Positions 7,745 through 60,939 of a stretch of 64,000 nt of DNA are shown piece by piece. Numbering within the stretch: position 1 is the first letter of the stretch; each line of letters opens with the position of its first letter. This DNA comes from Octopus vulgaris (taxonomy: Eukaryota): positions 28,086,001 to 28,150,000 of the forward strand of contig OX597829.1 in the NCBI GenBank assembly GCA_951406725.2. Reading direction: 5' to 3'. The position numbers were made by a program, and so were the translations under genes. A model generated the notes under the pieces. It was not told where the DNA came from, did not search any database, and worked only from the letters and a program-made list of their open reading frames with translations.

Positions 7745-9425
7745 GTAAGTATAACTATTTCCTATTTTATAGAATTTTCCAGATTCAGAAAAGCTACTTT
7801 TGTATTTAAACTTAAGATTCACAGAGCTGGAACATATCCTGTTCCAGCTCTGTGTATTCAGAGCATCAGATAGAACGTATCCTGGCTGATATTCTAACAG
7901 TTCTGTCAATTATTCAATCAGATTTTTGTTTTTTTTATTCACTCTGAATGGATGGAAGACAAATTGGATCCCAGTGGGATTTGAACTTCGATAAGTATTT
8001 GTGCTCCAAGTTCAAATTCTACTAAAGTCAACTTTCAGGGACAAATACTGTAGAGCATTCTATTTAACACTCTAATACAGGGGTTTGAAAAGTGCTCAGT
8101 ATTGACCCCTGGGGAGACTTATGTGGCTGTTGATAAAGATCTAAAACAATTCTGAGCATTATTGGTGCTTAAGTATTAGCAAACTGAATCTGGAAGAGTG
8201 TGGTAATGTAAGGCTAAAGCTCCACCAATTTCCAATCAAATAATTTCCAGCAGGTTAAACTGGTTAGGAAATTTAGTCTGCCACCCAAACAGGACATGGC
8301 AGGATTTGGACTCAGAATAGAAAGAACTGGTAAAAAATCTCATGAAACATGCTCATGTTGCTTTGGCTGTATGGTGAAGAAGTTCACTTTGTGATCATGT
8401 GGTTTTGGGTTCATTCTCAATGCATAGCACCTTGGGCAAGTCTCTTCTATTATAGCCCCAACTGATCAATGCTTTATGAGTGAATTTGGAAGACAAAAAC
8501 TGCAGAAGCTCATTGTATATGTGTGTGTGAGTGTGTGCATGTATGTGTGCGTGTGTGTGAGGGAGAGGGAGAGAGAGTGTGTGTTTATGTGTATTTTTGT
8601 ATGCATGTATATGTCTTAGTGTTAGCATCTGCATTTTCCACTCTTGACAACTAGTATTGATTTGTTTACAACCTTGAAGTTTATTAGCTTGTCAGAAGAG
8701 AATGATGACTAGGGGGTGAAACAAATGAAAAATAAAAGCAGAGTTGACCATGACAATATTTGAACTCAATACACTAAGAATCAAAACAAATGGCATCCTC
8801 TGAGGAATTCTATCAGGGGCTCCATCGATTCTGCCAATTTTCTTCCAAGTGAGATATGTTCTTATTTTATTTAATTTTTGTTGACTTTGTTTTTTTACTC
8901 TTCAAATGGAGTAGCATCAAAGGAGCTAAAGAATAGAATATTTTAAAATGTAAATATCTAAAGAGAAATAAATTTTTCCTGTGAATTGAACTAATTCAAC
9001 ACACATGGTTCCCTTAATGGTCTCAGCTATAAGATTATCATTTTGTCATTATATGAAGCATGATTATAAATTGGAAATTGAAATTAAGAAATCAAAAGGA
9101 AAAAGTTACATAGAGTTCACATGTCTATATTTTATTTTGCTTACTTAATACAAAGTTGTTAAAATATCTACTTGTCAGTAATCATGTATTGCACTATTTC
9201 ATTCTTTTTAGAAGTTATCAGCATGATAAACCTGACATTAATTAACCATTTTATGGAGTGTGACATTTCATTAAAGATGAAAATAAATACTGATTGGAGG
9301 AAGTTCATGGAATGAGTGTTTACTACATTTCTTTTCTTCAAGGAATATTAGTAGATTAGAAATAGAAAAAGTTCTTGGTGATCTAATTAACATGCACATT
9401 TAACTCTTATTTCATTTAATTGCAG

Positions 9426-16194: not shown

Positions 16195-16277
16195 TCCGAC
16201 ATATGTTTCAAAAAAACATTGGTATTATTCCAGAGGTAATAAAATGATGTAAAACAATGCTATCTTTTCATCAGGGA
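16195..16277 (-). ncRNA. Minimal type-I hammerhead ribozyme motif (Penelope-type)
   Basis: Minus strand reads tcc-CTGATGA-aaagatagcattg...caatgttttttt-GAAA-CATATG-TC-gga; flanks homologous to the 32834 copy. Confidence 0.65.
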
Positions 16278-17144
16278 TAAAAAGGGAAACAAAACACATC
16301 AATAAGCCATTTTAACCGAATGTAATGACTGCATATATGATGAAGGGAACACTGGCAAGTTATTTAAAAAGAGATAAAACGCTAATAGATTTAGCATCAA
16401 ATGCAATTAGAGAAAGAGGAGGAGAAAGAAAGAAATTAGCAGAAAATCAAGAGTGGAGAAATGTAGTTCCTATATTCAACCTTTAACTATCTTCTTACAT
16501 TTCATTTCCACTAAATATATATATCTATTTCCACACCTTTAAGCTTTATTCACATTCATCTATCGCACTACATATATATGTGTATAATTATATACATATA
16601 TGCTTATGCATGTATATGTGTATGCGTGTGTGTGTAGAAATGTGTGTATGAGCTTGTAATAATGTGTGTATGGGCATATATTTATACATAACTGTGTGTG
16701 TACATATGTAGTTTCTATGAACACAGAAGGTTTCTATTGTGAGAATGTGGTTGTGTATTTTTTATTTTTTATAGATTATATCTTTTATATTTTTCATGTC
16801 TGTTAGTGTAACTTCCCTTTTATTCAATGTTTTTTTTCATACTGTCCATTGTCAAAAATAGCCAATGAAAATGCCCCAAAGCTTTTAGCTTCTGCATTTG
16901 AAACTCTGAGTTCTATTACGACAACTTACTGATTGTCCTATACTATATATATATATATATATATATATGTATTCCTCTATTTTCATAATATCGAGGTCTC
17001 ATTCTTTTGTTATCATTTAATTATTATTAATGAATATATATATATATATATATATATATCATCAGTAGAACATAAATCTAAAAAAGAAGCACACTCTAAG
17101 TCATAGAGCAGTATATAAATATAAAAAGTTAGAAAAGGCTGGTT

Positions 17145-32346: not shown

Positions 32347-32351
<5 letters not shown>

Positions 32352-32560
32352 AAGTATAGAAGCCATCTTAATATGGCTAACCACATAGGGGAGGGGGTGT
32401 TACTGTAGCTTTATAGCCCCAGGAGATCGTCATCTCCAGCTGGCTTTAGACACCATTTCAGTGCCAGCTGGAGACGACGATCTCCTGGGGCTATAAAGCT
32501 ACAGTAACACCCCCTCCCCTATGTGGTTAGCCATATTAAGATGGCTTCTATACTTTACAT
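32347..32560. repeat. Near-perfect ~100-bp-arm palindrome, Penelope-associated terminal sequence
   Basis: Arms complementary around a short spacer; right arm plus extension recurs at about 47987-48100 next to the GIY-YIG element. Confidence 0.85.
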
Positions 32561-32605
32561 TATCGAGCGATTACTGTTTACATCTCATTCTGAGATTTAA
32601 TAATG

Positions 32606-32642
<37 letters not shown>

Positions 32643-32833: not shown

Positions 32834-32930
32834 TTTTTACTTTCGACGCATGTTTCGAAAATTCCACTGATACTATTCAAAAGAATAAATGGTATAAACA
32901 ATGCAATCTTCTCTTCGGGAAAGTGAAAAA
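32834..32930 (-). ncRNA. Type-I hammerhead motif with one core substitution
   Basis: Minus strand reads tttttcactttc-CCGAAGA-gaagatt...aattttc-GAAA-CATGCG-TC-gaaagtaaaaa. Confidence 0.65.
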
Positions 32931-33199: not shown

Positions 33200-34521
33200 A
33201 GAGTATCTTTAGAAAAAATAATGAAAAATAGCTCAGAATTGCAGAGCTATTTTTCATGAATGAAATTTAATAATATTTTAGTATGTCTAAAGGAATTTAA
33301 AATTATTTTTATGCATTTGTGTACATTTAAACTAATTAAATATTATTTTACAGAATAATAGAATTAAAATTTCTTTGATTAAAACCCTTTCTAACATGGA
33401 AGTATCCAAAGAGCACTTAAGGCGCATAATGCTTAATGAGTACAAAAAAGGAAACCCTGCAGCCAAAGCGACTCGAAACATACCCTCAGTTTATGGGAAA
33501 GAATGCTTGAATGAAAGAACTTGCAGAAGATGGCTTGCAAAATTCAGAAGTGGAGATTTCAGCCTTGAAGATGAAGATCAAACAGGATGTCCAGTTGAGT
33601 TTGATGATAAGCTCCTTGAGGCATTACTTGAAGAAAATCTTGCATTATCAGTTGAAGAATTGGCAATAAAACGTAGTTCAAACCATACAACTGTTCATCA
33701 TCATCTTCAACAACTTGGAAAGTACAAATGTTCATCGTTATCTTCAACAAGTTGGAAAGGTTCCTAAACTTGGAAAATGGGTGCCTCATGAATTGTCCGA
33801 AAGCAACTGCAAATCCCGAGTTGACATCTGCTCTTCTCTCCATTCTTGTGAACTCGTTTCATCCTTTTTGGATAGATGGTGACGAAAAATGGATCTTCTA
33901 TCGAGATGTTAAGCACTGTAAACAATGGCTTGGTAAAAGGGAAAAAGCTCAACCACAATCGAGAAGGGAACTTCATGGGGAAAAAATTCTTCTCTCTATC
34001 TGGTGGGATTGCAAAGGAGTAATTCACTTTGAATTATTACCACCTAATGCAACAATCAATGCTCAAGTCTACTGTCAGCAATTAGAGCGTTTCAACCAAG
34101 CTTTGAAGAAAAAAAGACCCACTTTAGTGAATCGAAAAAGAGTGATGTTTCATCAGGATAATGCGCAACCCCACACTGCAAAGATCACATAACAGAAGAT
34201 CGAAGAGCTTGGTTGGGAAAAAATTCCTCATTCACCTTATTCTCCCGACCTTGCTCCTTCAGACTACCATTTGTTTTGTAGTTTACAGAATCATTTGGGG
34301 GACAACTTTTGCAAGCTAGGAGGAGGTCGAAACTGACATTTTAGAGTTCTTCGCTTTGAGACCAAAAGAGTTTTACATTGATGGATTAAAAAGCTTGTAA
34401 ATAGATGAAAGGAAGTCATAGATAATCAGGGAAAGTACACTGATGGTTAAATTTCAATTAAATATAACATTTTATCACTTGTTTTCTTTATTGAAAATTT
34501 GGACAGAACTTATGGGATGAC

Positions 34522-34565: not shown

Positions 34566-35239
34566 TGTATATATATATATAGGTGCAGACATGGCTGTGT
34601 GATAACAAGATAACAAGCTTGCTTCCCAACTACATGGTCCTGGGCATGGCACCTTGGGAAAGTGTCTGCTATAGCCTTGGGCTGACAAATGCCCTGTGCT
34701 TATTTCTCGTGTGTTTACATATTTTTCACTTGTTGGTGGTGTCCTGTACTTATTGTGAATTTTTTATTTATTTGTAATCGAATACTGCACAGCCTTGTCC
34801 ACAGTAAGTTCTTATGTTTATTTATAATTTCTGCGGCTCCACACTCTGTTTTCTTTTTTTCGCTCTATCCCTTTATAATCGTCTATATTTTCCGTTTCTC
34901 CCCTCCTTCTTTGCTGTCCCCTGCCTATCTTTCTTCCACTCCCCACTATCTTTCATTCCTTCTCCCTTCGTTTCTTTTCCCTCACCCTCTCTCTTGTCTT
35001 CCCTCTGCAGGCCATTTCTTTTCCCATCTTCTCCAGACAAGACGTCAATCGCGCTGGACGTCATTTCTCTCGCCTCCTGACATTTTTTTTCTTCTGCTAT
35101 TTTCTTCTCTTCTGTTTATTCTATAAACATTTTTTTTCTTCTGCTATTTTCTTCTCTTCTGTTTTTTCTATAAACAGAAGAGAAGAAAATGGTAGGTCAA
35201 TATGTAGTTATAAATAAGACATTTACAAAAATATCCTAA

Positions 35240-46699: not shown

Positions 46700-48100
46700 T
46701 TCTAATTCAATTCCCTTGTAGATCTAATTTTATAGGTTTTTAGAAATGTAGAGTGAAATTTATGGCTACACAAGGGGATTGTATCTGCAAACTTATTTAA
46801 CATATTAGTGGTATATAATTTAAGGATTAGATACGATTCCCTTATACACAATATATACCTACCAGAACCATTACCATATGGGGGAGCCCTCGCAATTATA
46901 GACCATGTCAGGTCATAAGGCAAATTATTATCCCTAAGTTTATTTATGTATGCCGCTAAGGAAGTGGAATTCTTATATTTAGGGTTTGGAAAGGAATTCA
47001 GATGGGCCCTATGTCTCCTTTTGAAATCTATTGTACTGCCAATATATATCTTGTTTTGTCTCTTGGGTATGCTAACTATACATTTATACACAACATTGTA
47101 TCAAAGACATGATCCTGCAAACAGGCAGGTTTTGAGAGCTCTGCAGTTACAAATTTTATTCGGTGGCAACCTACTTTTAATGTTCTTATTTATATTGCCA
47201 GCATTATTAATATCATTAGACTGGGATATATACCTAATTTTAAATTCATTAAAGTTTGATTATAATTATTTGTTACATTAGTATTTGGGGTTGGTACCTT
47301 AGCTTTACCCTTATTTCTGTTAGTACATAGTGCTAGTTCTAAAGCATTATTATTTGTTGCACTGTTGTTGTCCTTATTTTTTGCTATATCCTTAATTTCA
47401 TTAGTGCATGTTCTTTCCCCTAAATTATTATTATTACTTACCCTATTGTTGACCTTATTCATTATACGTTTAATTTTACCCCTATTTATAGAAGCTATTA
47501 TTGTCCCTAAGTTAGGCATTGCTGAGTACAAGAATTTTACAGTAGATTTATTACAAATGGTGTAATATCTGTGATGTTTTGGGAAGTTAGATTCTAGAAT
47601 TTTAAAAAACAATCTAGGTAGATTCTTAACCCTAAGTGAGGAAAGAGGGGCAAACCAAATAACTTCAAGTAATCTGGGTTTACAATTTCTAATTGTATTA
47701 GAAGTCCCAGGAGTAGGAGGCTAATACTTATAATTATTATAATACCTATGATTTCTCAGCCTAAAGCATTTAATATGCGGTTGATTCGTGCTAGTATCAT
47801 TTAATTGACCTATGTTCACTTATACCTATGCTATTATTAGTATAAATATTTGTGATCTTTCTTTTTAATTTAGTATCTGGTATATAGTAGATACTATATT
47901 AAACCCACTTAATTTCAAGGCATTATTATATGGGGGGGGGGGGGGTGATTGAAGATTTCCTCATTAGCGGAAAGTTTATTTATAAGTATAAAGCTACAGT
48001 AACAACTCCCTCCCCAATGTGGTTAGCCATGATAAGATGGCTTCTATACTTTACATTATCGAGCGATTACTGTTTCAATCTCATTCTGAGATTTAATTAT
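46700..48100 (-). mobile_element. Penelope-like element (Naiad-type), RT C-terminus plus GIY-YIG, with terminal sequence
   Basis: IWFAP...FPKHHRY..I.N..TVK..YS.MPN, CNCR...C...G.C linker, VVYKC...IYIGST..FK.RH..H..SF...W.I...C..E. Confidence 0.9.
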
Positions 48101-49593: not shown

Positions 49594-51703
49594 ACACAAA
49601 CATTGACAGGCCAATGTTTGTGTCTGCACCCCACCCCCACTGGCATTAGATGTGCATCATTTAGCATTCTTATATTTAGTATGTTAATCAACTCTTTGAT
49701 TTAGTATCTGTCGACACCTGTCCTATTTCATCCCTTGATTGATTTATGGTTACACACCCACACAGGTTCATTCATCCATAAAAAGGCATTCACACACACA
49801 CAGATATAAATGTATACATACAACTGGCTTCTTTCAGTTTCCATCTGCCAAATCCACTCACAAGACTTTGGTCAGTCTGAGGCTGTAGTAGACGACACTT
49901 GCTCAAGGTACCATGCAGTGGGACTGAACCTAGAACCATGTTGTTAGAAAGCAAACTTGTTATCACATATCTATGTCTGCGCCTATATGAAATTAATGAT
50001 GAAACATATTTGGAAAATGTAGTCATTTAAAACAAAAGAAAAAATAATAGACAAATAGCTGTAGAGTTAAGAGGCTCACCTTGCAATCTTGTGGTTTTAG
50101 GTTCAGTTCTACTGCATGGTACCTTCACCAAGTGTCTTCTAAAATAGTTGCAAGTCAACTAATGTCTTGTGAGTGAATTTGGTTGCCATAAACTTTGTGG
50201 AAGATTGTGTGTGCGTGTGCATGTGGTGTGTCTGTGTGTGTATGTGTACATGAGTGTGTTTGCGTGTGTGTGTATGTGTGTGTGTTTGAGTGCGCCTGTG
50301 TGTGTGCATGTTTGAGTGTGTGTGTTTGAGAATGTGTGTTTTTGAGCATGTGTGTGTTTGAGTGTCTGTGTATTTATGTGTGTGTGTTTCTGTGTTTGTT
50401 CCCCACCAGTGCTTGACAACCAGTGTTAGTTTGTTTACGTCCTTGCAACCTAGTAGCTTGGCAAAAGAGACAGATAGAACAAGTATTAGTTTGGTAAAGA
50501 AGATAGAAAAGGGATAGAAAGAAAAAGATAATTACTTAGGTTGTTTTGTTCAACTAAAACCCTTCAAGGTGGTGCCCCAGCATGGCTGCCATCCAGTGAC
50601 TGATACAAGTAAAAATAACGTTTGACACATAAATGTTCCAGAAAATTCTCTTTTAAAATTACGCACGAAGTGTTGATAGATTAAGGAGAGGTGAGAGATT
50701 AGTCTCTGTCCAAACGAATGGCATTTACTGGCAATGACAGGTAAGCCTGTACTCAATACGGAAAGATTATAACTTTAAAACTAAAAACACTACATGAGAA
50801 AGGGAGGAAAAATGAGAAAAGAAAATGGGGGAGAGAGACATAGAGAGGTATTTATGTATTATATCTCTGTATGTATATGTGTGAGTTTATGTGCACTGCA
50901 GATATGTGTTTGCATCTGTATACATACATGCTTGCACACAAGCACACACACACAGAGGCAGATATATCAACTCGTCTATGTATGTGTGTGTATATGTATG
51001 TATGCATGTATGTACATATGTATGTATGTATGAATCTATGTACTTATGTATGTATTTATCCATCTATCAACATATATGTGCTTGTGTGTGTGTGTGTGTG
51101 TATAGATGTACATGGAAAGAAAGAGGGGAGAGAGAAAGGGAGAGAAAGATGGGAAAATGGATATAAATATGTATGTGAATATATAGAATGGGAGAGAAGG
51201 TGAAAGGTAGGTAGAGACAAGGGGATAGAGGTGGACAGAGAAAGAAGTAACAAGGAATTTCTCTTGTTCAGTCATTTACAACTAAAATTACCGATTCTTT
51301 AGGAAATTCTTATACTCTTTTGATCAATGCTTTTCTTGTTCTACTGGGAACCTATGGCTCATATAACACATGTATACATATATGCCTATATTTTGTCTCA
51401 TACACATATAATCATGCAACTGCACACACAACATATATATATATATATATATAACATATATTGTTATACTTAGTGATGGTCATATTTTGCCAATTAAACA
51501 CTTGCACTATAGATTTGGTTTTCACTTTAGCATCATTACTATTATTTTAGTTTCTTTGTCAAAGTACTTTCATCACACATTCTGTGACCTCTTCAGTAAC
51601 TTCCTGCACCATGTGTCTCCTCTTGTTATGCTCATTTCATTTTGTCTAGACAAAATATATAATGTCTCTTTTTACTTGACAAAATAGGATCTTCCCCATG
51701 TAT

Positions 51704-51779
<76 letters not shown>

Positions 51780-51929
51780 TTTCTGACAAGTTGTGGTGCA
51801 CCTGAGCACTGTATACAATAATTTCATTATTATTATATATATATATATATATAGTAATAACTATAATCCTTGGATGGAATTAATTAATTTATAAACCAGT
51901 AGAAACAGAGGAAACAAAATACACTAACA

Positions 51930-52545
51930 AAAGAAATGGAAAAGCAAGTGATGAAATTATTTGGTTTAATCCAACTTTCAATTCACAGATAAAATCCAAA
52001 ATAAGTCAGGAATTCTTTGCAACATTAGATAAGCACTTTCCAAGATCTAAATATCACAAAATCATCAACAGGCATAACATAAAATTAGCATATCTAATCT
52101 AAAATACCACATACATTAACTAAATAATGCAAAACTAAATAGAATAAAACTGGAGGGGTGATATGGAACAGCCGTAGATCATTACACAGTATACAACAAT
52201 GGAATGGTTGCAAATAAGAGTAATAAAAGCTCATCAATAGCAAAAACAGATCCAAACAACACCACTGAGTTGACAGTCCAATCCATACATAAGGAAAATG
52301 AGTACACGATTATAGGAGGAAGAGGAAGGGGGACCATCAGTTGTAACTCTGCTGGGAGATCAGAAAAAATAAGATCATTTGTAATTGCAGACATAAAGAA
52401 AATGTAAATTTAACAACAACTGCATGATAAAGGATGTACTTTACAAATGTGAGGTGAAGGCAGATACGCAGAAATATATGTACACTGGTGGCACTAGAGA
52501 CACAACGAAATACGTATACATAACCATCTTATATCATTTTCCAAT
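51930..52545 (+). mobile_element. Penelope-like (Naiad-type) remnant
   Basis: IIWFNPTFN..., then DVLYKCEVK...YMYTGGT...IHNHL.SF. Confidence 0.75.
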
Positions 52546-55320: not shown

Positions 55321-56565
55321 CGAGTATTGTGGTCAATAGTTAGTGGTGTATTGAGGCTTTTAAATGTAAACAAGACATCATCATTTAATTCTTATGTCCC
55401 ACACTGGCATGGAACATGGATTGAATAATTTAACAAGATCCAATGGGTCCAAGGACTGCATCATGCACCATTGTCTACTTTGACATGGTTTCTGTAACTG
55501 AATGCCCTTTATAATGCCAATAACTTTACAGTGTGTACTGGATTCTTTTCTCATGCCACCAGCAATAGTGAAGATACCATACAACTTACTAAACAATGAA
55601 ATGGATTGTGTGTGTGTGTGGTGGGGGTCGCTTTATGCTAGCAGGTGAGCATTAAGACAATCAATATAAAAGATCTATAATCCAGAAAATGGAAGTGTAA
55701 AGTGTGAACAAGAAATCACACTTAGGGTATAGAAGATTTTTCTCTAAAGCTTACATTTTCTCTCAAGAGAAGTAATTCTGAGTGAGTTAAAGCAACAGCA
55801 TGGATGTTTCATTGCTATCATGACAACCAACATTATTTTTTCTTTAAGTATAGGTCAACAGAGAAGAGTCACAACTAGATGAAATCACCAAGCAGTTTAA
55901 ATAAACAAGTCTCCAATATTTAAGTGGCTAAAAACTGTCAGCAAGAGGGCACCCAGAAGTCAGGAACTGGATGTTGCTTGGCCACCTTAGAATGTAAGGA
56001 GTTAAGGGCCGGGACACTTGTCTGAGTGAGATTTCTTTTCTGAAGACTTTCTATTGTTCAGTTCTCTTGTGAGTTTTTTTTACCACTGCTTGTCAATTTG
56101 AGTCAAGTAAAAAACTCTTGTTACCTTAAGCATAGAGAGATAGAGTGCCAAGGCCAAAGAGACATTGGAAATCACTGCAATGCCTATTATAAAATCAGCC
56201 AGCCTTCTGTCTATTTGATAGAAATCAAGCTTGTGTAGCTCATCCAAATAATCACTCAAATTCCATTGATTTCACCTGTGAAATAACCTTTTTTTCCATT
56301 ACATTGTTGGCAGCTGTTGTCATTCTCTAGTGTGTGGGATTTATTAAATAGGATCAATAGACCCAATTTGAACAACTCATCACTACTGGTTTGTGAATTG
56401 TCAAAATAAAATTAGGACACCACCACCACCACCACCATCATCAACCTATCTTCCACCTACCACTGTCACTACATACATACAAATATATATATAAAAAAAT
56501 ACAAAATGAGACAAGAATGTACACTTTTCTCTTATATGTAAGTACAAATATACATACATATCTAC

Positions 56566-56619
<54 letters not shown>

Positions 56620-56716
56620 CTGTTTGTCTGTTTGTCTGTCAGTCTATCTATTACTTTCTCTTTCTCTCTCTCTCTCTCCTGCTCCCTTGCTCCCTTCCCC
56701 TCTCTCTCCATTTATA

Positions 56717-56928
56717 TTCTTTTATTCTTTTACTTGTTTCAGTCATGTGACTGCGGCCATGCTGGAGCACCGCCTTTAGTCAAACAAATCAACCCCAGGA
56801 CCTATTCCTTGTAAGCCTAGTACTTATTCCATCCATCTCTTTTGCTGAACCACTAAGCTACAGGGACATAAATACACCAACATTGGTTGTCAAGTGAAGG
56901 TGGGGGGGACAAACACAGACACACAAAC

Positions 56929-56967
<39 letters not shown>

Positions 56968-57117
56968 AGTTTCCTTTTGCCAAATCCACTCACATGGCTT
57001 TGATCAGCCCAAGGCTATAGTAGAAGACACTTGCCCAAGATATCACGCAGTGGGACTGAGCCTGGGCCCATGTGGTTGGTAAGCAAGCTACTTACCACAC
57101 ATCCACTCTTGCGCCTA
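56717..57117 (-). mobile_element. SINE family A
   Basis: Homology to other A copies. Confidence 0.88.
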
Positions 57118-57149
57118 TTATATATATACACTAAATATGAATAGAATCA

Positions 57150-57655
57150 CTTACATTGCTAGAAATAAGAGCTAAAATGTTCTAATACTGTAGTCAAAGC
57201 ACATAATTGTATACATATGCACTGATGGGGACTATAATTGCCCGAATTCCTTATACTGATTGGTCAGTTTTGGCAATTTCCATTGCCACATCAGTTGGGA
57301 CTAGCTTGACTTTGGCAGATTCCAGACTTAATTCTCCTTCATTATATATGTTTTGATAAAACATTGTAGACTGTATACACATTAGCGTATACACATTAGC
57401 GATTCACTAAATCACCCATAGATTTTTATGGTGAAAACATGTATACTGTTGGAGAATTAAGTTCAGAATCTGCTGAAGTTGAGCCAATCCCTGCTGATGA
57501 GGTAACAGAAATTGCTGAAATTGACTGGTCAGTATAAGGAATTCACAAATGGTGCTTTTTTGGGGGATTATAGCACCTGTCAGTGTAGATGTATACAATT
57601 ATGTGCTTTGACTTCAGCATTAGAACATTTTATCTTTTATTTCTAGCAATGTAGG
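57150..57655. mobile_element. Inverted-repeat element with a hammerhead motif in each arm
   Basis: Arms at about 57150-57355 and 57434-57655; + strand core at 57494-57534. Confidence 0.8.
57486..57543 (+). ncRNA. Type-I hammerhead ribozyme motif with intact core
   Basis: CTGATGA-ggtaa..ttgct-GAAA-ttgac(tg)gtcag-TA-taaggaatt; GUA triplet at 57532-57534. Confidence 0.7.
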
Positions 57656-57737
57656 AGTTTCTAACACCCTAGTGACAATTATTGTTTTCCTTTTAGGTAA
57701 AGCACTGCAGACTGTTGTCTATATTAATTTTATATAT

Positions 57738-57949
57738 ATATAATATGTGACAATTATTCGGTAGCCATGACAAAACTCTGAGTTTCGGATGTCGGGGTGG
57801 AAACCCACACTAGCATCTCTTCAGTTATCAGGCCATCAAAAAAGTGTTATGATGGCCCAATAACTGAAGAGATGCTGGTGTGGGTTTCTGCCCTGACATC
57901 GAAATTCAGAGTTTTATGATGGCTACCGAATAATTGTCACATATTATAT
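57738..57949. mobile_element. Palindrome with a hammerhead motif in each arm (57768-57830 minus; 57860-57917 plus)
   Basis: ataa-CTGAAGA-gatg...catc-GAAA-(c/t)tcagag-TT-tt(a/g)t in both arms; flanked by (TA)n. Confidence 0.85.
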
Positions 57950-58022
57950 TTACAGATAAATTCCTCTATTTACATAATATCGAGGTCTCTTTCATTCTTT
58001 TGTTGTCTTGCTATTTCTATCA

Positions 58023-58054
<32 letters not shown>

Positions 58055-58614
58055 AGTGAAATGGCACAGCCCTTTCCATGTGGAAAAGTGGTATGACTCA
58101 GCTACTATAAAGTCAAACAGTCAGTCATTGTAGAAAATCAGTCAGTAATAGTAGGGTCATTGTACAAGTTTCTCAGTTGGAGCCAGTGTTACTTACGTGA
58201 TATGTACAAGCTTGAGTTAATGTCGAAGTAGACGTTTCAAGTCATTGTCTTGAGGAGGTATCAGCGATAGCACAATAGACAAGTCAATGATAATTAGATG
58301 CAGAATACTGTCACAACATAATAGTGGTGACAAGAATATTACAGTACCAACAATAACATACAAGTGGGTGAGGATCCACATTATAACATATATATATATA
58401 AAGCTAATAATGAAGGATTATCAATCTGGACAAATACTTCATAAGCTCTCTGTTGGCCCACCAGGCTAACAATATTATTTAGATTAGTGAAGAACTCTGG
58501 GTGTCATTAAGCCAGGATCCTAGGTTGTGGTTGATCACAATTTTGCATATAATGATATACAAAAACAAGATTAAAATAATGGTCATTACATATCATTCCT
58601 TTACTGGAGCAAAT

Positions 58615-58741
58615 ATGACTTACAACTGTTTCCAGTAGTTATTATAGGTACATTACTGATAGATTTTCTCAATTGGTCTATTGATCAATTGAGAAAAACT
58701 GAATGACTCAAGAAAATTAATGCTACTTTCATCAGAGCCAT
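58615..58741 (-). ncRNA. Hammerhead motif with extended stem II
   Basis: Minus strand reads atggct-CTGATGA-aagtag...(ttttctcaattg/caattgagaaaa hairpin)...ctactg-GAAA-CAGTTG-TA-agtcat. Confidence 0.6.
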
Positions 58742-60939
58742 TTCTGGTTATAACAAGCAGAACACTGAAGGTATGTATATTACATGGGGAAGGGAGGAAA
58801 AGAAGATGGAAAGATGCAAGTAGAATAGAGAACAAAGGAAGACAGGTTACAAAGGGGTAGAGAGAAGTAAGGAGATGGTATAGGAGTCACTTAATAGAAG
58901 CAGGGGCATTGTATTGCCAAAATTTGGAAGAGGGTCAGTCATAAAACAAACCTCCGACCAGAAGAACATTACGTGGGAATTATTAACTATGAGGATGTAT
59001 TTGAAATTTGAAAGGACTGGAGAAAAGTCGTATTGCAAGATAGCTGGAATGCGGGAATGGAAGTGGTGTTGACAGAAAATCAGGTGACGGAGCTTGAAAA
59101 AGAACTTAGAAAAGTGTATTTGGTAATAAGGGGAAGGTTGAAACAGGAAAAGAGGGACGAACTTGAGAAAATATATGGGATAATTCTAGGGGACTACGTG
59201 GTTTTTTTCATTGAAATAGGGATGAGGACAAGTAAGTGATGTTGACTGATGGGGCAGTTAACATCACTTTCATCTCTCATTTTCACCCTTTTTTCATATC
59301 TATCATACGCTTATGTTTTTATTTTTAATTTTAATTTTAATTTTTGATGTTTTGTGTCCCCAATGTATTGTAATGTCCCCTCTGTGTAAAACCTTTATGG
59401 TGAATAAAAAAACAAGTGTTTGTAGCCAGCTCAACACCCATTATCATATTAACATTGTATATTGATTAGGTATTCTCCAACCATTGTGTTGAAATTTGAT
59501 ATGGGATTTTATACACATGGTCAATCTAAGACATGGTCAATATTTATACTCATGATCAATATCTAGTGATTGTTGCAATCAAGCATTGTAGGGGAATTAT
59601 ATTAGAAGATAGGAATATTAGTAGTAGTCATATTGTAGCATTGAGGTTGAGAATGCTCTTCCTACCTAGCAAATAAATACTGATAGATTGTGAGATGTTA
59701 GGTCAAAATAATAAAATAACAATAAAATATAGTTAAAGTTGTTTAAAGTCAAATGTAAATTCAGATTAACCTGATTAGATGGGTTTTAAAGTTTAAACCA
59801 ATAAAAAGATTATAGATTAAAATTTGAACTAAAGTTAAAATTTTTAAAGTTAGCATTAAAGCAAACCAAGACATAAAAGAATTAAAATAAATTTGAGGAA
59901 TAATGGGTGATTCTAAAAGAATTATGATGAAGTTACAACACCAACATCAACAAAACCAATAAAAATAATAATAATAAAATAACAATAAAATAATGTTACA
60001 AAATTATTTTTAAAAAATTATAATCATAGGATGATAATAGAACAACAATAAGAGGGTTAGAATTACAATAATAATGAAATGAAAATAAAAATTAAAAGTT
60101 AAAAATTAAAGGCCTTAAAAAAATGAAAATCTTAAAAGAATAAAATAAAATAAAGTTTAAAAAATGTTAAATATGGAAATATATATATATACATACACAT
60201 ACATAAAATACAAAAGAATATTTTTAAAAATAATATAAAAATAATATGTAAACTTTTAAACATTTTAAGACTTTAAAATATAGTGAAATGAAACTAAATA
60301 AAATAAATAGAAAACCCATATATAGAAAAATTTTAGGTAATTAACATTCATCCCTTAGGCATTATACCCATCCCAACCTATACCTCTCGCTATATCATTA
60401 AAGTTAACTAGGGAACCTGCTGAACGATTTATTTTTAAAATGCTGACATAATATCACTATTTCCTGCCTACGGTTAATAAGATTACCCACTGATGTTAGG
60501 ATTTGGAATGACTACCTATTTCATATGGTTTAACTCTACTGAGGATTGACCATTTCAGCTCATATCCTGCTTTTTCCTTCCTAAGTTGCAATATTAGCTT
60601 GCTAAGTGATATCACATTTTCATAACTTTTGTGCCTAAATGACAAGATGTGGTTGTAATATCAGAGCTTAAATGTCATGGCACAGCATCCTATGTACTTG
60701 TAAGCTATGTTCTGTGTTATTACTGCACATTCATATACTATGTTCTTTTCTAAGCATGATTTATTTAAAATACGTTCCCTATCCCCTCTACAGTTACAAC
60801 TGGCCCTGTCCTTCCTATTGTTGCTACCTGTGCAGTTATTATTACTATTGTCATTATTATCTTTATCATTACTGTTATTTTTATTATTCCTTCGTAACGC
60901 ATTGTAGGTAAAAATGCACCAGAGCCTTTAATCATCTGT

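Follow-up and report, generated by a model that had tools for sequence, protein, structure and literature searches.

A twin-hammerhead palindrome in Octopus vulgaris as a probable head-to-head insertion of an abundant Penelope-like element family

The locus described here lies in a 64,000-nt stretch of the Octopus vulgaris genome (assembly GCA_951406725.2, contig OX597829.1, positions 28,086,001 to 28,150,000), hereafter “the window”. The window has 36% G+C and many microsatellites and short repeats. As an earlier note on this DNA had claimed, a 212-nt palindrome (57738-57949) is set within (TA)n. Its arms (57738-57838 and 57850-57949) are separated by an 11-nt spacer (57839-57849) and differ in 10 of 101 aligned columns, i.e., by nine substitutions, eight of them transitions, and one indel; the arm-to-arm JC distance is 0.096. 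If the arms started out identical, and if the clock quoted in part of PMC13282606 holds, this divergence would correspond, as a rough estimate, to ~13 million years. An assembly artefact is ruled out by the 10% difference between the arms together with the recurrence of their parts elsewhere. A-to-I editing was likewise rejected as the source of the differences, because the sole site that can be polarised, using the relative at 16900, shows a change from C to T. Only the right arm continues into a 3′ extension, the “tail”, of 65–74 nt, and (TA)n runs border palindrome plus tail on both flanks; within these runs, a target-site duplication cannot be read. As RNA, the palindrome has a predicted folding energy of −161.1 kcal/mol (z = −24.1), which none of 200 shuffled sequences equalled.

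Each arm carries a type I hammerhead motif, and the two motifs point outwards on opposite strands (Table 1). In both arms, there are CUGANGA and GAAA boxes and an NUH cut site, helices I and II can form, and helix III is short and palindromic. A hammerhead descriptor found four motifs in the window (the two arms, 51596, and 16274), whereas 50 Markov-simulated windows averaged 0.04 and never held more than one. The individual elements named in the earlier note can mostly be located. The gatg/catc letters of stem II are present in the arms (4–5 bp), as is the GUU triplet at both cut sites. CTGAAGA and GAAA also occur in both arms, although in the left arm one additional C separates catc from GAAA; the palindromic CTCAGAG of stem III is found in the left arm, whereas the right arm has TTCAGAG, which introduces a U-G pair. 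The predicted self-dimer of helix III amounts to −9.8 kcal/mol for the left arm and −5.2 kcal/mol for the right arm, and stem I has six pairs in the left arm versus four contiguous pairs in the right. With their type I cores and palindromic helix III, the arms agree with the description of minimal, dimer-type hammerheads of Penelope elements and retrozymes. The hammerhead is 36 nt away from the element end. An ATG at 57872 marks the start of stem II; the arms differ by 1 nt, giving different frames, one of which is closed after 20 codons, and a 51-residue frame from this ATG had no protein match.

Table 1. Features of the palindromic locus and of related elements in the window
Feature	Position	Strand	Remarks
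Left (TA)n target run	57731..57742	.	Doubles as 3′ end of the neighbouring element 57142-57727; letters of that family reach 57702 and beyond
Left copy, element 3′ end without tail	57738..57849	-	Includes the 11-nt spacer
Type I hammerhead, left arm	57764..57833	-	CTGAAGA 57824-57818; stem II plus extra C; GAAA 57786-57783; palindromic helix III; GUU cut 57774/57773; 6-bp stem I plus extension
Right copy, 5′-truncated 3′ end of the left copy’s element	57850..57949	+	Starts where 3 nt (TGA/TCA) are microhomologous to the left copy (read from the sequence)
Type I hammerhead, right arm	57855..57924	+	CTGAAGA 57864-57870; stem II 57871-57900; GAAA 57901-57904; helix III with U-G; GUU cut 57913/57914; stem I degraded, 4 bp
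One-sided 3′ extension (tail)	57950..58023	+	Right copy only
Right target run (TA)14	58023..58050	.
Single-arm decayed relative, with like tail	16860..17035	+	Ends in (TA)n; first core box CTGANGA lost
Older head-to-head palindrome, unrelated family	57142..57727	.	173 matches, 40 mismatches in 230 columns; tail 57664-57727
Young palindrome, sister family	32347..32610	.	98-nt arms, 99%, lacking a hammerhead; one-sided tail; (TA)n run on either side
Neptune-like RT-thumb/Zn-linker/GIY-YIG frame, broken, 5′-truncated	46717..48100	-	Frame 47974 to 46717; 47987-48100 is the inverted end of the 32347 family together with its tail
Broken GIY-YIG part, other Neptune-like element	60413..60819	-

Some properties set limits on how these motifs could act. 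For single arms, predicted folding places the ribozyme fold 8–10 kcal/mol above the free minimum. Forcing the full palindrome transcript into the hammerhead gives −78.1 kcal/mol, at a cost of 83 kcal/mol relative to the free fold. A read-through transcript of the palindrome would, on this model, be a plain double-stranded hairpin with the ribozymes as passengers. Because the ribozymes lie on opposite strands, one such transcript would lack two same-sense cuts and would yield no unit-length circle. The extra nucleotide between A9 and G10.1 that is typical of minimal PLE (Penelope-like element) hammerheads is absent from both arms (offset 0 in each). It is present in the unrelated motif at 51596 (minus strand), a minimal hammerhead with an extra nucleotide after A9 and a GTAC helix III. 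An Rfam search of 57100-58800 at E ≤ 10 returned no hammerhead family; its sole hits were generic hairpin (miRNA) models that stayed under the respective gathering score. Elsewhere in the window, at 9164-9240 (minus strand), there is a weak Rfam HH9 match (29.6 bits, threshold 52) that the hammerhead descriptor missed.

The arms and tail belong to a repeat family that was examined in contigs of four of 24 listed public runs (three DNA, one presumed to be RNA), aligned to 57130-58760 at 80% likeness. In the three DNA runs, contig depth summed across the outer arms and the tail reaches 0.38–1.17 million, versus 51 and 70 for two locus-like contigs (run X1). Judged by this depth, which is not equivalent to copy number, the family is clearly very abundant; toward the palindrome centre the depth declines, perhaps through divergence in addition to truncation. 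T at 57771 makes up 99% of the depth in the three DNA runs and renders stem I fully Watson-Crick, and G at 57859 (78–95% of the depth in these runs) brings back a base pair that the right arm no longer has. Since these letters repair the motif, the family keeps a hammerhead fold, from which the 57738 copy has decayed. Some copies lack the GAAA box, through deletions joining 57776>57813 (run X13) or 57778>57814 (run X3), and GAAA-less copies also occur in run X10. The latter, presumed to be RNA although no RNA run is listed as a carrier of the family, contains contigs of the family as well as a single locus-like one (57506-57760, depth 2.1), which extends 23 nt into the arm; this has no bearing on strand, ends, or expression level and was given no weight as evidence of transcription. 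A 22-nt arm pattern had no matches in metagenome contigs.

Copies of the family differ in where they begin, end, and join. In run X10, family sequence runs past the palindrome centre in four contigs behind 57837 (median 102 nt) and one behind 57844. By eye, the first letters of these continuations resemble the spacer, which therefore seems to belong to the left copy. Joins between left and right arm occur at other points in six of 12 rows among 97 (57763>57913, 57769>57950, 57771>57911, 57795>57913, 57837>57969, and 57841>57934; depths 71–185); each row comes from one contig, aligned at 80% likeness to a reference that is palindromic, and some may be misplaced. In three of the six, the right copy starts in the 3′ half of helix III, 2–4 nt upstream of the scissile bond, counting intervening letters. 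Because the family extends past the centre and copies join at other points, the palindrome was probably made anew at insertion rather than amplified as a unit. There are also two types of end: tail-less copies stop at about 57958 and pass into (TA)n, as seen in 37 contigs of run X3, whereas the 57738 locus and the copy at 16.9 kb are tailed. The latter bears out the claim that the tail recurs at ~16971-17010 beside a decayed relative: 57960-58007 matches 16971-17014 at 87.5% over 48 columns (E = 7e-12), next to an arm relative without CTGANGA (16900-16955, 75% over 56, E = 2e-5), and (TA)n is found here as well (16951-17060).

Other inverted structures in the window share this architecture. 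The palindrome at 57142-57727, immediately to the left, has hammerhead cores at 57494 (plus strand, boxes intact, stem I decayed) and 57294 (minus strand, both boxes mutated); the family’s letters at 57288, 57491, and 57493 restore the core as well as a 6-bp stem I, and the cut then reads GUA. The junction varies among copies of that family too, and its tail ends in the very TA run that holds the 57738 palindrome. The earlier note had proposed a hotspot of ribozyme-bearing retroelements that takes in this neighbour and a motif at 58615. A cluster of such repeats, including the twin-hammerhead neighbour, is indeed present, but the 58615 motif has no canonical core (CTGATAG, no GAAA) and belongs to another repeat family. 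The positions of the runs suggest that the “hotspot” came about as elements nested into (TA)n runs that previous insertions had left behind. Kinship between the 57738 tail and that of the 32347 family was considered and dropped, being marginal (uncorrected p = 0.035–0.04).

Several further repeats were observed in the window. At 51456-51713, an asymmetric inverted structure of the same general form, from an unrelated family, lies between (TA)n runs; its long arm contains the hammerhead at 51596, and its short arm is 64 nt long. Another family contributes two single copies that resemble hammerheads (16198-16274 and 32845-32918, minus strand; 74% over 168 columns), with a long AT-rich stem II and a GUC cut site. 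In the abundant repeat at 58556-58760, CTGATAG precedes a 13-bp hairpin and a short palindrome, which gives a hammerhead-like layout. A CTT-rich hairpin at 35099-35190 is a short inverted duplication (45 nt, 89%) with a direct copy upstream and resembles a local template switch. A broken transposase of mariner/Tc1 type lies at 33336-34192 (PF01359, E = 4e-27).

Three broken frames in the window (47974, 51884-52099, and 60413-60819) are of a kind that we take to be “Neptune-like”, a label that draws on the group’s domain order and motifs and on PF01541 in a window frame. The 47974 frame, which has an Asn-rich linker, aligns to residues 457–800 of a protein 806 residues long that has RT, Zn-linker, and GIY-YIG motifs (PF01541, E = 1e-4). 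An end plus tail of the 32347 family lies inverted beside it (93% over 114), 13 nt from the truncation point at 47974, so that by its sequence 46717-48100 is a textbook 5′-truncated PLE with an inverted end. A link to RT and GIY-YIG is thus seen for the sister family only (47987-48100). The minimal hammerhead at 51596 lies ~290 nt upstream of the 51884-52099 frame.

Searches for a coding parent of the 57738 family gave less. A protein scan with the RT-thumb stretch returned 678 proteins at E ≤ 0.001, with 150 listed, and the four that were checked carried no name; Pfam assigned a weak GIY-YIG domain to one of six scan-matched proteins. Compared with the 57738 locus, the 150 Neptune-like proteins listed among the 678 gave a single, chance-level match (E = 0.32). 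Comparison of the arms with the flanks of the three broken frames gave no match beyond p = 0.05, and word-index protein searches returned nothing. Because no coding parent is shown for the arm and tail family, a non-autonomous PLE derivative has to be allowed for. In its strongest form, the family would have no coding parent of its own and would be a short, non-autonomous element of very high copy number that bears a hammerhead and depends on Neptune-like proteins to move, and its many fold-back insertions would record the mechanism; we regard this version as possible but unlikely.

We conclude that the 57738 locus very probably represents one insertion into (TA)n of a very abundant endonuclease-bearing (EN+) PLE, or of a non-coding derivative that the PLE protein mobilises, in the form of two truncated ends joined head to head. 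An inverted 5′-truncated copy in head-to-head arrangement, a tail at one end only, and a (TA)n target, as expected of an EN+ PLE insertion, are all found at the locus. The three broken Neptune-like frames in the window, and the tie between one of them and a sister family of like form, also speak for this reading; the tail, about twice as long as published, the missing extra nucleotide in the hammerheads, and the negative searches for a coding parent speak against it. The arms, the one-sided tail, the abundance of the family, its continuation past the centre, and the alternative junctions are directly observed, and from them we infer a route of priming and, presumably, a coding parent. In the sequence of events that we envisage, the element’s terminal repeat (pLTR) would carry a minimal type I hammerhead, and reverse transcription would start at two alternative points, with and without the tail. 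The two copies would stop after about 110 and 175 nt, and these truncated copies would then join head to head via the TGA/TCA microhomology. Priming from both cut target strands is the route that we would favour, by somewhat better than an even chance, because the spacer and the tail belong to different copies. Snap-back self-priming followed by later resolution is the less probable route, though a serious contender. Since the owner of the spacer has no tail, the tailed copy would not be a plain fold-back of it.

Other readings of the palindrome draw on the same observations. The earlier note had suggested an undescribed retrozyme-like family producing hairpin or circular RNA. This suggestion is not supported: there is no tandem array in 56000-60000, the ribozymes are on opposite strands, the fold-back points vary, and the arrangement has already been described for PLEs. 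In the relevant parts of PMC7229834 (Cervera and de la Pena 2020) and bioRxiv 10.64898/2026.07.22.740005 (Li et al. 2026), retrozymes are head-to-tail tandem repeats of 150–450 bp whose same-sense ribozymes release unit-length RNA; according to the same parts, they derive from PLE pLTRs (bioRxiv 10.64898/2026.07.22.740005) and occur in molluscs (PMC7229834). The locus could thus be a stray inverted insertion of a non-LTR retrozyme, i.e., a truncated by-product of a non-coding tandem parent located elsewhere, whose hammerhead-cut circular RNA is moved by PLE proteins. This is improbable, albeit the most credible of the alternatives. It would suit the palindromic helix III of the type I hammerhead, the left-arm self-dimer energy, the fully paired stem I that T at 57771 gives to nearly all of the family, the origin and molluscan occurrence of retrozymes, and the failure of protein and flank comparisons to find a coding parent. 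However, no head-to-tail tandem unit with hammerheads is found in 56000-60000, and no same-sense array of descriptor motifs in the whole window; every relative seen ends in the tail or in (TA)n, never in a next unit; and two DNA runs and X10 contain copies without GAAA. The earlier note held that its view would fall if all copies were simply ends of coding Penelope elements. That is largely how the copies appear, although a coding parent of the arm and tail family was not found.

A fixed ambisense palindrome that multiplies as a unit, via hairpin or circular RNA cut by both hammerheads, is less probable still. That both cores can be read despite about 10% arm divergence speaks for it, but with 5% decay in each arm a core of 7 + 4 nt would stay intact about half the time by chance (0.95^11), and both the right stem I and the left junction are damaged. 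A second twin-hammerhead palindrome does adjoin the first; against a fixed unit, however, copies have other fold-back points, the family continues past the centre, and the relative at 16860 has a single arm. Moreover, a single strand contains one ribozyme and its exact antisense, which sets 83 kcal/mol against the ribozyme fold. A miniature inverted-repeat or foldback DNA transposon with a TA target, in which the hammerhead letters are incidental, is the least probable reading of all. TA-flanked inverted repeats and mariner-type transposon remnants in the window are in keeping with it, but in place of fixed symmetric terminal inverted repeats there are an asymmetric tail, a single-arm relative, and variable centres, and the hammerhead motif occurs far above chance. 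Insertion of truncated PLE ends thus remains our preferred reading.

On that reading, the locus adds a probable cephalopod example of an already described form of insertion. The PLE papers, in the parts cited below, leave the role of the hammerhead during insertion open. With thousands of head-to-head junctions, the abundant family offers a test of two primers versus snap-back, and of ribozyme-cut RNA as the template. If the clustering of junctions in helix III holds genome-wide, it would be an in vivo readout of the role of the PLE hammerhead during insertion. If transcribed, such hairpins would form double-stranded RNA on which editing or small-RNA processing could act. The listed titles and abstract openings from the literature on octopus hammerhead ribozymes contain nothing on this palindrome, although repeat libraries may already include the family; passages of PMC13282606 report Penelope-like families and their past expansion in O. 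vulgaris and, as far as they go, make no mention of ribozymes or palindromes.

The closest known counterpart is the EN+ PLE insertion unit. Portions of PMC8557442 (Craig et al. 2021) describe PLEs with an inverted 5′-truncated copy beside the 5′ end, a tail of 30–40 bp at one end, and a bias toward (TA)n, and portions of PMC3846280 (Arkhipova et al. 2013) describe head-to-head palindromic PLE junctions, attributed to self-priming. Relative to these accounts, the 57738 locus is alike in its inverted copies, palindromic junction, one-end tail, 5′ truncation, and (TA)n without a readable duplication. It differs in that the copies are only about 100–175 nt long, so no coding part is left, and in that the tail is 65–74 nt rather than the published 30–40 nt. 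The hammerheads themselves can be compared with those in the relevant section of PMC4209133, i.e., dual minimal hammerheads on opposite strands, 100–700 bp apart, with weak dimer cleavage. The arms share with minimal type I PLE hammerheads the core, a weak, dimer-suited palindromic helix III, G10.1-C11.1, and the opposite-strand pairing, but have a 7-nt helix III palindrome and a longer, branched stem II. Metazoan non-LTR retrozymes, as characterised in the sources cited above, resemble the locus in being non-coding, bearing a type I hammerhead, and being related to PLEs; their ribozymes are tandem and same-sense, whereas those at 57738 point apart on opposite strands. A mechanistic parallel is provided by the PAc Poseidon element of Anolis. 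According to the parts of PMC11167929 (Frangieh et al. 2024) that deal with it, the PLE protein cuts and extends both target strands, the tail is the interval between two RT start sites, and the ribozyme cut, although unneeded in vitro, takes place only with protein. PAc Poseidon and the 57738 family are alike in having an ATG where stem II starts and a cut a few tens of nucleotides upstream of the end, as well as both tailed and tail-less ends at an AT-rich target.
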